DNA of 24,147 bases. It comes from Acidobacteriaceae bacterium (GTDB lineage Bacteria; Acidobacteriota; Terriglobia; Terriglobales; Acidobacteriaceae). The stretch spans positions 1 to 24,147 of the forward strand of contig DASSKX010000344.1 in the NCBI GenBank assembly GCA_035689925.1. Direction: 5' to 3'. The notes beneath the pieces are model-generated. The model was not told the DNA's origin. It did not search any database and saw nothing but the letters and a program-made list of their open reading frames with translations. Both the position numbers and the translations under genes were made by a program. This document shows, piece by piece, positions 4,259-15,915 of this stretch (position 1 is the stretch's first letter; every line of letters starts with the position of its first letter).

Positions 4259-5338
4259 TCACGCCATCTGGAAAGTGACGTGGATGATACTGACCTGATC
4301 CACGGGGTGGCCGTTCTCCGTCGCCGGCTTGAAGCGAATCCGCTCCGCTGCGACTTTGGCCTGCTCATCCAGGCCATGGCCAAGTCCGCTGACCACAGCC
4401 AGCACCTGAACCTGCCCGGACGCCAGGAAACGGACTTTGAGCGTGACGTCGCCCTCGATCCGCAGCCGGCGAGCTTCCGCCGTGTATTCCGGAAGCGGCT
4501 TCGACAGGACAACGATCGGGGTGGGGACGGACTCGGTCGGCCGCACCGGACGCGCGGTAGCGCTGCCGTACGGATCGCTGCCGAAACCGGCCTGTGCGAT
4601 CGTGCCCTTGCTGCCCGGCTTACCGGTGCCACCCACCACGCCGTCAGAGAATCCGGCGGAAGCGATGGTCCCGCGATCATGTCCTCCGGCAACGCCGTGT
4701 GCCACACCTGAACCGAACTCGACACCATGAACAGAGCCCGCGCGCGCAGCGCCCGCGCCCGTGGGACCAGATCCCGGAGCGGCATTGAAGTCACCGACTG
4801 CGGCGATCGTCGCCGGCCGGCTGGCGCTCGGGTTCGGCTTCGCGCCATTCGGATCGCCAAACCCGCCCGTCTTGATCGTCGGGTGCGACATGTTGTTCGC
4901 GACAGCGGTCGGAGTCACGCTCTTGAACAATCCAAGCTTCGGTTGCGGCGGAGGCGTGACGCGCTTCGGCGGCGCCGCTTCCATCTTCGGAAGCATCGGC
5001 GTCGGCATCTTCACTTCGGCAATCTTCGGCGGTTCCGGCTCCGGTTTCGGCAGCGAGAGCTTCGGAGTCTCGTGCATCGCGGGCGGCGGCGGAATGTATT
5101 TGATCTGCGGCGCCGGCGGTGGAATTGGCTTGGGCTGCTCGATCGGAAACACCAGTTGCGTAACGTACTTTTCCTGTTCGTGCACCTGGTGCACCTGAGC
5201 CATAGCCAGCAGCAGGGCCAGTCCTGCCACGGTGACATTCACAACCATGCTGGCGCCGAACGAGCCCATGCGCCCTTCGGGCTCGGGGAGGAGTCCAAAT
5301 CTGGCGGGTTGAGGATACGTGTAGTTATTCGTCGCCAT
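4259..5338 (-). CDS. tonB: Energy transducer TonB-family protein
   Basis: Single N-terminal TM helix, Pro-rich spacer, Gly-rich region, TonB_C domain (PEYTAEARRLRIEGDVTLKVRFLASGQV..GLGHGLDEQAKVAAERIRFKPATENGHPV). Confidence 0.9.
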   Translation of the reverse strand: MATNNYTYPQPARFGLLPEPEGRMGSFGASMVVNVTVAGLALLLAMAQVHQVHEQEKYVTQLVFPIEQPKPIPPPAPQIKYIPPPPAMHETPKLSLPKPEPEPPKIAEVKMPTPMLPKMEAAPPKRVTPPPQPKLGLFKSVTPTAVANNMSHPTIKTGGFGDPNGAKPNPSASRPATIAAVGDFNAAPGSGPTGAGAARAGSVHGVEFGSGVAHGVAGGHDRGTIASAGFSDGVVGGTGKPGSKGTIAQAGFGSDPYGSATARPVRPTESVPTPIVVLSKPLPEYTAEARRLRIEGDVTLKVRFLASGQVQVLAVVSGLGHGLDEQAKVAAERIRFKPATENGHPVDQVSIIHVTFQMA

Positions 5339-14109: not shown

Positions 14110-14738
14110 GATCCGGGTGGAGGATTGCGGCGTTTGGGTTGTTGCTCGCCATGGTGGCGGGCTGTAACCATCCGCTGCTGCGGACGCAGAGGACCATACC
14201 CCCGCCTCCTCCGCAGACCGAGCCCTCGAAACCTCCGACGCAAATGGCTGAACTGATGCCCGCGATGCCGGAGCTGCCGGTCGTCGTGGACGAACGGCCC
14301 ATCCGTCTCGATGCCTCAGTGCCCGAGCAGCAAGCGCCTCCGCCGCCCGCGGAACATCGCCGGATCCTGCGCCGCAAGCCGCACAACACAACGCCCGAAC
14401 CGGCGCAGGAGACCGCCAAAGCGCCCACTCCGGCTCCGCCGAATCCCGCGGTCGCCAGCGGTCCGCCACCGGACGAATCGCCGATCGGCCAGCTGTCGCC
14501 GGCGACCAGCAACGCCAATACCGCCGACCGCCAGGCGCTCACCGATGAGCTGAACACCACCGAGAAGACGCTGAACGGCATTCATCGTTCGCTCAGCTCG
14601 GAGGAGCGCAAGACCGCGGAGCTGATCCGCACCTTCATCGGCAAGGCGCGGCAGGCGCTGAAAACCGACGACCTGGACGGGGCGAAGAACTACTCGACGA
14701 AGGCAAAGATCCTGCTCGACGAACTGGTCAAGTCCTAA
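14106..14738 (+). CDS. Pro-rich lipoprotein with C-terminal helical domain, function unknown
   Basis: ATGA overlap with the kinase stop; lipobox VAG-C20; long Pro-rich linker; amphipathic helices at the C-terminus. Confidence 0.8.
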   Translation: MRSGWRIAAFGLLLAMVAGCNHPLLRTQRTIPPPPPQTEPSKPPTQMAELMPAMPELPVVVDERPIRLDASVPEQQAPPPPAEHRRILRRKPHNTTPEPAQETAKAPTPAPPNPAVASGPPPDESPIGQLSPATSNANTADRQALTDELNTTEKTLNGIHRSLSSEERKTAELIRTFIGKARQALKTDDLDGAKNYSTKAKILLDELVKS

Positions 14739-14739
14739 G

Positions 14740-14967
14740 TGCCCCCCCGGGGGTCACCCGGGATGGCAGCGCTTAAACATTTCATTCCGCAGTGTTTCTC
14801 GCCGGGAGGGTGACCTGCTGGAACCACGGCGGCAAACGCGCAAGCACTTGAAACGAAAGTGCCTGCTCTCAAGCACTCTGTTTGCAAATGCTTTCGCCTT
14901 CATCTCGGGCGGCTCTCCTGAAAGAGAAAAGGCTCAGCCGCAGGGCTGAGCCTTTTTCTTCCTATCT
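14740..14967 (-). ncRNA. Candidate structured non-coding RNA (3' part resembles, from memory, the Acido-Lenti-1 motif)
   Basis: Four stems in a row, with G-U wobbles that work only on the minus strand (14840-14866, 14871-14893), an 8-bp closing stem GGTCACCC/GGGTGACC (14752-14759/14808-14815), and an upstream extended -10. Family identity not verified. Confidence 0.45.
14921..14960. terminator. Bidirectional terminator-type hairpin
   Basis: 13-bp perfect stem AAAAGGCTCAGCC-gcag-GGCTGAGCCTTTT with pyrimidine tracts on both strands, between the convergent kinase operon and nadK. Confidence 0.75.
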
Positions 14968-14973
14968 ATATTC

Positions 14974-14982
14974 AGAATACCA
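14974..14982 (-). promoter_or_regulatory. Extended -10 promoter candidate TGGTATTCT
   Basis: TG-n-TATTCT followed by GAAT; 11/13 identical to the candidate promoter at 21735-21747. Confidence 0.5.
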
Positions 14983-15057
14983 AAGCGGAGTACAGAATCG
15001 TCTCAACTTTCCTGGGGTACACGCTGCCGGCGAAGCGGTTCCGCATCGCTCGCGGCG

Positions 15058-15915
15058 CTAGCGCTCGCCCCACTTCAGCTTCGACCGCAGGACATCGAAG
15101 AAGCCGTTGTTGCCGAGGCGCACCAGCTTCACGCAATAATCGGAGCGGCGGCAGCGCAGCTCATCGTCGATGCGCAGCTGGATGGCTTCCTGGCCATCGA
15201 CGGTGAGGTAGGTCTGTTCAGGGACGGCTTCGATCCGCACCAAAATCTTTGAGGTGCCGGGCACGACGATCGGCCGCAGCGTGAGCTGGTGCGGACAGAT
15301 CGGCGTAACGATGTGCGTATCCACGCCGGGCACGACGACGGGGCCGCCCGCTGCGAGCGAATAGGCCGTGGAGCCGGTGGGCGTCGAGACGATGATGCCG
15401 TCGGCACGGAAGCTGGCGGCCAGCTGGTCGTCGACTTCCACGCTGAACTGGCCCATGCGGGCGATGGCGCCCTTGGCGACCACAACGTCGTTGAGGACGT
15501 CGTGCTCGCGATACAGTTTGCCGCCGCGCCAGAGTTCCATGTGCAGCATGGCGCGCGATTCGGTGGTGCAGCACTTCGACGTCCACGCCTCGAGATGGGT
15601 GTAGAGATCGGCGAGGCGAACTTCGGTGAGGAATCCGAGAGCGCCGAGGTTGACGCTGAGGATGGGAACGCCACTCTTCGCGAAGACGCGGGCGGCCGCC
15701 AGCAGCGTACCGTCTCCGCCGAGCACGATGACCAGCTCCGGATTGAAGGCCGCCATATCCGGACGCGGGGCGACGTCCTCGTCCAGCACGTAGGTGGCGC
15801 TCACCGGATCGAGCAGCGGATGGTAACCGTGGCCCTTGAGCCAGAGCACCAGCTCCGGCAAGGTCTGCCGCAGTTCCTCTTTTTGTGGTTTGGAGATGAT
15901 GGCGACGCGCGGCAT
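15058..15915 (-). CDS. nadK: NAD(+) kinase
   Basis: GGDGTLL, VNLGALGFL, LNDVVV, DGIIVSTPTGSTAYSLAAGGP; start 15915 preferred (TACACT 7 nt upstream), 15921 alternative. Confidence 0.95.
   Translation of the reverse strand: MPRVAIISKPQKEELRQTLPELVLWLKGHGYHPLLDPVSATYVLDEDVAPRPDMAAFNPELVIVLGGDGTLLAAARVFAKSGVPILSVNLGALGFLTEVRLADLYTHLEAWTSKCCTTESRAMLHMELWRGGKLYREHDVLNDVVVAKGAIARMGQFSVEVDDQLAASFRADGIIVSTPTGSTAYSLAAGGPVVVPGVDTHIVTPICPHQLTLRPIVVPGTSKILVRIEAVPEQTYLTVDGQEAIQLRIDDELRCRRSDYCVKLVRLGNNGFFDVLRSKLKWGER

Follow-up and report, generated by a model that had tools for sequence, protein, structure and literature searches.

The window analysed here, a 24,147-nt stretch of an Acidobacteriaceae genome, contains a spacer of 319 nt (14739-15057) that separates two converging genes, nadK and the gene of a Pro-rich lipoprotein that closes a kinase operon. 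A first-pass annotation had placed a lone, self-contained structured RNA between this signalling operon and nadK. In fact, two dispersed repeat modules make up the stretch as a mosaic, which that annotation overlooked, as it did the insertion and the 49-aa ORF described below; the whole is one copy of a unit that occurs many times over in soil Acidobacteria and is not catalogued. Read along the minus strand, from nadK to the lipoprotein gene, its features are:

15058-15060, minus strand: stop codon (TAG) of nadK, which ends at 15058 and converges with the lipoprotein gene
15030-15049, minus strand: small GC hairpin GCGATGCGG-AA-CCGCTTCGC, directly 3' of the nadK stop, without a U-run
14921-15010, minus strand: 5' cassette, short form, one copy of a multicopy unit of putative promoter and hairpin
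14999-15010, minus strand: -35-like box AAAGTTGAGACG, with TTGAGA at 15001-15006, from family alignments and logo
14974-14982, minus strand: extended -10 TG-G-TATTCT, TGGTATTCT, the G of TG invariant and its T present in 86% of 65 copies
14962-14979, minus strand: family core TATTCTGAATATAGATAG, two mismatches from the consensus TATTCTGAAAATAGAGRG
14927-14956, both strands: 13-bp GC hairpin, AAAAGGCTCAGCC (14944-14956), loop CTGC, GGCTGAGCCTTTT (14927-14939)
14754-14918, minus strand: 49-aa ORF with SD-like GGAGAG (SD 14913-14918, ATG 14903, TGA 14754), judged fortuitous
14740-14900, minus strand: type B box module, comprising a hairpin of anti-box and box, a further GAATCAAATGCTTRC-like box and a G/C palindrome
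~14842-14892, minus strand: hairpin H1, in which the anti-box AAGCATTTGCAAAC (14880-14893) pairs with box 1, TTTCAAGTGCTTGCG (14839-14853)
14742-14815, minus strand: 3' domain, in which GGTCACCC (14808-14815) pairs with GGGTGACC (14752-14759) around box 2
14771-14788, minus strand: box 2, GGAATGAAATGTTTAAGC, which has diverged from the family box GAATCAAAYGCTTRC
14742-14753, minus strand: palindrome CCCCCGGGGGGG, the end of the unit, abutting the lipoprotein stop codon
14738, plus strand: end of the 210-aa Pro-rich lipoprotein gene, the last gene of the kinase operon

None of the unit's sequence is present in five sister genomes, where nadK and the lipoprotein gene are separated by only ~10-25 nt; the unit was therefore inserted at this locus. 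Two further sister genomes have a gap of ~60-120 nt, and the nearest genome (94% identity) carries a different gene after the lipoprotein gene and no cassette. The insertion, a recent one, took place in the lineage of this species and separated nadK from the kinase-lipoprotein operon that converges with it. Because the best paralogue in the source genome is merely 81% identical, the donor copy is not in the assembly. The small hairpin at 15030-15049 is outside the cassette family: paralogues were sought in the source genome and none was found. In the sister species themselves (L013:1640-1665, L015, L014), the two stop codons lie ~10-25 nt apart with no terminator-shaped hairpin, so the nadK and lipoprotein transcripts must overlap there.

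A unit that enters spacers in this way could be a DNA-level intergenic repeat in the style of BIME/RIP or Correia elements, selfish or architectural, any RNA made from it having no function of its own. The modules would then be palindromes that form hairpins, together with putative IHF-type protein-binding boxes; they would have spread into spacers and brought a promoter and a terminator along by chance. We hold this explanation to be less likely than not, yet it is the main and a serious rival to the reading favoured below. The insertion into such a short spacer speaks for it, as does the mosaic architecture of the family, in which short and long cassettes and box modules of two types, A and B, occur in varied combinations. 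However, we saw neither terminal inverted repeats nor target duplications, and the Y1/RAYT transposase (PF01797) had no match in the source genome, an assembly that is just 68% complete.

Paralogous copies, which the first-pass annotation had proposed to look for in the host genome, are numerous: an nhmmer profile and a covariance model (R1) together recovered ~24 cassettes in the source genome. The closest (on contigs C267 and C329) are 81% and 77% identical to the window copy, and paralogy within the genome is confined to positions 14921-15014 of the spacer. We define a cassette by a core, TGnTATTCTGAAAATAGAGRG, followed by an A-rich spacer and a GC hairpin with a U-run, all in a single orientation. 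The window copy has all of these: it scores 89.3 bits against R1 (E 4e-18), its core differs from the consensus at two positions and its hairpin is 13 bp long. The core itself joins the extended -10, TGnTATTCT, to GAAAATAGAGRG, and the logo of 65 copies reads AAannTGGCAg, ~20 nt, TGnTATTCTGAAAATAGAGrG, A-rich spacer, GC hairpin and TTTT.

Since R1 is too specific to the subfamily of the source genome for a phylum-wide survey, we followed the distribution of the cassette with pattern counts. At one mismatch or less, the 18-nt core is found in 51 of the 58 genomes of the genus, with 1-13 matches each, and its reversed control in none. In 300 sampled genomes from elsewhere in the phylum, six have a single one-mismatch match, a number not above that of the reversed control. 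When the exact core was sought in 185,000 species genomes (one per species), 48 of the 80 matches listed were Terriglobales/Acidobacteriota MAGs, with bins of Ca. Sulfotelmatobacter, Korobacter and Solibacter among them. Across genera the core is near-unchanged while its flanks drift, which argues for selection on the core and against a mere DNA repeat. In fact, the core is far better conserved than would be expected of a decaying repeat.

Most cassettes exist in a long form, with ~100 further conserved bases upstream; the window copy belongs to a subfamily without these. The additional blocks comprise TGTGGAAAATTCTTGTCAAG, AAGTAAY, a TTCCAC direct repeat with an 11-bp period and a small GCCAAA/TTTGGC hairpin. 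In the source genome, where this hairpin is CCAG/CTGG, a change that looks compensatory, long forms are found on C666, C19, C272, C335, C493, C313, C447, C338 and C613 (~100 nt upstream of the cassette); others lie at loci L039, L044, L050, L064, L071, L081, L104 and elsewhere. GTGGAA complements the TTCCAC of the direct repeat. The blocks may serve as regulator sites, or they may belong to an extended leader RNA with the core of the long-form copies inside it. Short tandem repeats (CTACCGA, CTGACTG, GCTGCAA, CCCTAYCCC) adjoin several cassettes, on C19 (~4400-4500), C579, C666 and C338.

The first-pass annotation was right about the 13-bp hairpin at 14927-14956. It is a perfect stem with eight G-C pairs, starts 17 nt downstream of the -10 hexamer and has an A-run before it and a U-run after it, which gives it the shape of a two-way terminator: a GC stem-loop with the tail TTTTCTCTTT on the minus strand and a T-run on the plus strand too. 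The suggestion that it is a good bidirectional terminator, perhaps ending both nadK and the kinase operon, is thus correct as to shape. The covariation that had been proposed as a check is strong in this hairpin: across the family its sequence varies from copy to copy and its pairing is kept, with 93.7% of cells paired and 161 double-change cells, a result that 0 of 500 shuffles reached; slid controls gave at most 57%.

Whether the box upstream of the hairpin is a promoter is a matter of motif and conservation. The extended -10 that had been noted at 14974-14982 is indeed present and is conserved family-wide: TGGTATTCT carries TG one base upstream of a TAnnnT hexamer, and in 65 copies TG and TATTCT are invariant or nearly so. 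A TTGAGA is found 21 nt before the hexamer (20-21 nt in the family), too far for a canonical -35, and a two-hexamer sigma-70 consensus scan reported no promoter in the spacer, so the case for a promoter is carried by the extended -10 and its conservation in the family, not by a -35. Elsewhere in the source genome TGnTATTCT occurs 32 times, against 12 for its reversed control. It lies 5 nt before a mature tRNA-Met end, there with TTGACC at the canonical 17-nt spacing, and 9-19 nt before tRNA-Arg, tRNA-Ser and tRNA-SeC genes; it also immediately precedes a sub-threshold Acido-Lenti-1-like element on C337. The presence of the same box before tRNA genes makes a transcription start near 14967, the position that spacing would give, plausible, and the cassette box a putative promoter. 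In any case, promoter-like box and hairpin form a real, conserved and oriented unit, as the copies across the genus and the covarying hairpin attest.

Two other sigma factors were considered for the conserved bases and rejected: for sigma-54, the TGGCA box is 3 nt too close to any GC element (by eye), and an ECF/sigma-E site (GGAAC...TCTGA) is ruled out by a spacing of ~30 nt. As for the tRNA genes, TATTCT or TATCCT, often with an upstream TG, stands 5-20 nt before 5 of the 35 that were found (C83:632-735, C714:5003-5093, C94, C467 and C439 of the source genome). These tRNA-linked hexamers can serve as a lead to the consensus of housekeeping promoters in a little-studied group, on whose promoter motifs and start-site maps our literature search found no paper.

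Downstream of the cassette lies the type B module, whose contents in the family are H1, GGGGGAT and GTCAC motifs, a second box GAATCAAAYGCTTRC and a G/C-rich end. Both elements that had been described here are present: the repeat-built stem region at 14840-14893 is a long imperfect hairpin (H1, in both the MFE and the centroid folds), and the domain closed by GGTCACCC and GGGTGACC does enclose GCGGAATGAAATG. The same anti-box/box hairpin folds in copies from the source genome, G011 and G157, and as an inner stem only in the G165 copy; by eye and with no folding, a shorter GTCA/TGAC complement surrounds box 2 in C412 and L168, not in C19 or C301. Some copies carry 4-5 boxes, and some module ends (C301, L168) are clean terminators. 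The box occurs in 9 of the 58 genomes of the genus, mostly behind the same cassette, and is essentially absent from 120 other genera of the family; taken in its entirety, the module of the window has no close homologue beyond the source genome. It is conserved mainly by sequence, with little covariation. The modules are too much of a mosaic to fit a single alignment, and RNAalifold of six type B copies accordingly gave a consensus of only six pairs. The downstream module is no more than a candidate for a structured RNA, and any RNA-level function of its boxes is putative.

The conservation of the boxes in sequence also counts for the DNA-repeat explanation. The family box GAATCAAAYGCTTRC fits WATCARNNNNTTR, the E. 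coli IHF consensus; the two boxes of the window each miss it by one base, which counts against that explanation at this locus. Also in its favour is the related type A module, a separate dispersed element that looks REP/BIME-like. It is found at 60 metagenome sites (L185-L244), with at least six copies on one 1.2-Mb contig, and mostly without the cassette: at just 6 of the 60 does the core lie in the 400 nt ahead of the module. WATCARNNNNTTR recurs at one fixed position in 12 of 54 type A copies and in none of the shuffles. Type A was found neither in IMG/VR nor in Rfam. Its layout is a hairpin, GGGTAATACC-CAAAA-GGTATTACC, near-invariant and with covarying basal pairs, followed by an AATCA...TTG box and the palindromes CCCCCGGGGG and GGGGTACCCC; in the source genome it lies at L006:1815-1925 and 12 other sites.

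Folding was next weighed on both strands. The whole spacer reaches -141.2 kcal/mol on the minus strand (z -5.3, 0 of 100 shuffles) and -139.4 kcal/mol on the plus strand (z -5.4); both fold equally well, so that the energy of the whole spacer picks no strand. The first-pass annotation had taken the G-U pairs as pointing to function on the minus strand. Locally this stands, as the segment 14765-14895 folds to -52.1 on the minus and -39.4 on the plus strand, a minus-strand advantage of 12.7 kcal/mol. Across the family it does not: in 11 related modules the mean difference between sense and antisense is -1.0 kcal/mol, and this lack of a family-wide strand bias suits a DNA repeat.

Expression was judged from assembled RNA contigs, which give neither start, end nor strand. 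In a sediment metatranscriptome (X19), a 175-nt contig matches 14747-14921 with 0 differences; the lipoprotein gene has no cover there, and nadK is covered by a variant strain only. The end of this contig at 14921 coincides with a 30-nt palindrome and may be an assembly break. In other RNA libraries (X17, X18, X20), cover is low and even over genes and spacer alike, which speaks neither way; two such libraries may contain DNA. We take the X19 contig as a hint of an independent transcript, a trace that gives no strand or ends. Its restriction to the module, together with the constant orientation of box modules to the cassette, argues against a DNA repeat; constant orientation, terminator-like ends in some copies, the contig and the local minus-strand advantage all count for an RNA.

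A further explanation is that only the hairpin matters, as a two-way terminator, the remainder being a decaying inserted repeat. We consider this unlikely. The A-run and U-run could stop both converging transcripts, and the two mismatches in the core, the divergence of the boxes and the 81% identity of the nearest paralogue also count for it. However, sister species do without a terminator in their ~10-25 nt spacers, the extended -10 and H1 are intact, and the RNA contig covers 14747-14921.

What follows the cassettes elsewhere bears on whether the module here could encode a protein. In the source genome, cassettes are followed, always in one constant orientation, by an SD and an ORF or by box modules. 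Box modules of G007, G154 and G002 likewise have a cassette-like element ahead of them (E 5e-8 to 0.011); in G157, the order is cassette-like element, ORF and box module, and in G165 such an element is ahead of a type A module. The ORFs encode Cys-rich proteins of 110-160 aa, a 109-aa family (MNIFKQLG...), a protein of 106 aa that weakly matches a terminase small subunit (E 2e-4, PHROG) and giant tail-fibre-like proteins with a moderate PHROG match (E 3.5e-9).

The Cys-rich proteins carry repeated C-x(5-9)-G-x2-C-x(7-10)-C-x2-H motifs; they match no Pfam family above its cut-off (zf-C3Hc3H is weak, E 0.015), and one of them gave uninformative scores of at most 0.80 in the ESM Atlas. Their sites include L005:266-745 (C231), C338, C313, C506, L105:779-1105 and L171/L184 (G157), and a type B box module follows homologous Cys-rich genes in the source genome (C231) and in G157 (L171). 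In other Terriglobales MAGs, cassettes precede the giant tail-fibre-like proteins (phrog_16641, E 3.5e-9) and an operon that encodes, besides a terS-like protein of 107 aa, a dual-specificity phosphatase, an orphan of 1342 aa and a beta-helix/polysaccharide-deacetylase protein (L074:1-849, L043:384-5573, L081:1180-8000). A prophage origin of the cassette was rejected: the exact core has five chance-like matches in IMG/VR and type A has none, and the terS-like operon, with its phosphatase, orphan and beta-helix protein, has no head module.

Could the window copy, then, express the 49-aa ORF (14754-14903, minus strand) as a basic, Cys-containing micro-protein by read-through of the cassette? GGAGAG stands 9 nt before its ATG, the TTTCAGGAG after the hairpin resembles that of ORF-bearing copies such as the one on C338, and other cassettes do precede small Cys-rich proteins. 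However, the ORF matches nothing in Pfam, and a search of 5.8 billion protein clusters yielded no homologue; in C611, C301, L165 and L168 each of the three frames of the homologous module is broken by stops, and in C231 the homologous nucleotides end an ORF in another frame. We therefore give this explanation very little credence: the ORF is almost certainly fortuitous and the module, by the pattern of its frames, non-coding.

On balance, then, we lean towards a different account of the locus, in which a promoter would run into a terminator to yield a ~46-nt RNA, with a ~220-nt box RNA made by read-through and a terminator that works in both directions. Thus, the extended -10 TGGTATTCT and an AT-rich discriminator would start an RNA near 14967. 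Most polymerases would stop at the hairpin and U-run, 20-45 nt downstream, releasing a ~46-nt RNA with a purine/A-rich 5' tail, and those that read through would make a ~220-nt RNA with H1, box 2 and the G/C-rich end, in which the repetition of boxes hints at a platform to which a protein or a complementary RNA could bind. On the minus strand the same hairpin would end nadK, and on the plus strand it would end the kinase-lipoprotein operon. The first-pass annotation had raised a ~50-nt RNA with conditional read-through; a ~46-nt product with read-through is the best current reading, and the structured RNA beyond the hairpin is a candidate only.

More speculatively, the cassettes could together form a genetic switch specific to the Terriglobales lineage: a constitutive extended -10 promoter and an invariant initial transcribed sequence would lead into an immediate terminator, to be overcome by a dedicated antitermination or activation factor. 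Such a switch would co-regulate dispersed units that comprise box RNAs, small zinc-finger-like and terS-like proteins and giant tail-fibre-like surface proteins, and the ~24 short terminated RNAs of each genome, with their shared purine/A-rich 5' tail, would be a regulatory pool. We consider this rather improbable, and offer it as a conjecture.

Acidobacteria are among the most abundant soil bacteria, and to our knowledge almost nothing is known of their promoters, small RNAs and mobile non-coding DNA. The highly conserved 18-nt core and the hairpin provide a searchable marker for dozens of transcription units per genome across the genus; the core turns up in other Terriglobales MAGs too, and it is now tied to a group of orphan genes and of modules that do not code for protein. 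The window adds a datable case of a unit inserted between converging operons that otherwise have no terminator. If the cassettes are a regulated switch, they would be a new regulon-wide control device; if they are selfish repeats, a new class of promoter-carrying intergenic elements that rewire neighbouring transcription.

How does the unit compare with known RNAs and repeats? Rfam 15 has no match at gathering score in the whole window or at 19 related loci, and at E<=10 the matches in 14600-15150 are all below threshold, at chance level and to unrelated families, most of them falling on the terminator hairpin. The first-pass annotation had likened the last domain to Acido-Lenti-1 (RF01687), and it had proposed a covariance-model search for this family and for Acido-1 (RF01686). 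Neither matched 14600-15150, even at E<=10 and with lax filters, and the best matches in the genome are on other contigs: 29.2 bits on C337 for RF01687 and 18.8 bits on C210 for RF01686, both short of the gathering cut-offs of 37 and 50 bits. Acido-Lenti-1 is a motif of 46 positions with two hairpins (Weinberg et al. 2010, PMC2864571). Like the module, it is a small non-coding motif of Acidobacteria; the module differs in being ~160 nt long with other conserved boxes. Membership of either family, for which there is the resemblance proposed in that annotation and the sub-threshold match on C337 after TTTGGTATTCTG, is refuted by the covariance-model search, and we give it next to no probability. 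The C337 element (C337:4-62, minus strand; L245:1-70) starts a few bases after the TTTGGTATTCTG box and appears to be a small RNA gene with a cassette-type -10.

BIME-1/RIP of enterobacteria and the Correia elements of Neisseria are dispersed modular intergenic repeats with palindromic hairpins around an IHF-type site; those of the Correia type, which insert between genes, carry promoters and terminators as well. The unit is likewise dispersed, modular, intergenic and hairpin-forming; it differs in that no RAYT, inverted repeats or target duplication were seen and the IHF fit is partial. Judged by structure, the closest analogues would be the PeSL cassettes of T4-type phages, in which the stem-loop is within or upstream of the promoter and is not transcribed from it (PMC2839356). 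Both are short repeats with a strong sigma-70-type promoter (putative here) and a GC stem-loop terminator, placed ahead of small ORFs without assigned function and tied to modular gain and loss of DNA. However, the cassette hairpin is downstream of the presumed start, and the cassette resides in a bacterial chromosome rather than in a phage. Judged by function, the closest analogue appears to be the lambdoid late promoter PR' with its immediate terminator tR', the source of the 6S RNA of lambda and of the StxS sRNA of Shiga-toxin phages (PMC7547250). Lambdoid phages use the Q antiterminator, and no Q-like one was identified here; PR'/tR' is present once per prophage, whereas there are ~24 chromosomal cassettes per genome; and, unlike tR', the cassette terminator is merely ~20-45 nt from the presumed start. 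In both, a promoter (in the cassette, a predicted one) leads into a near terminator, so that a short RNA would be the default product and whatever lies downstream would be reached by read-through.
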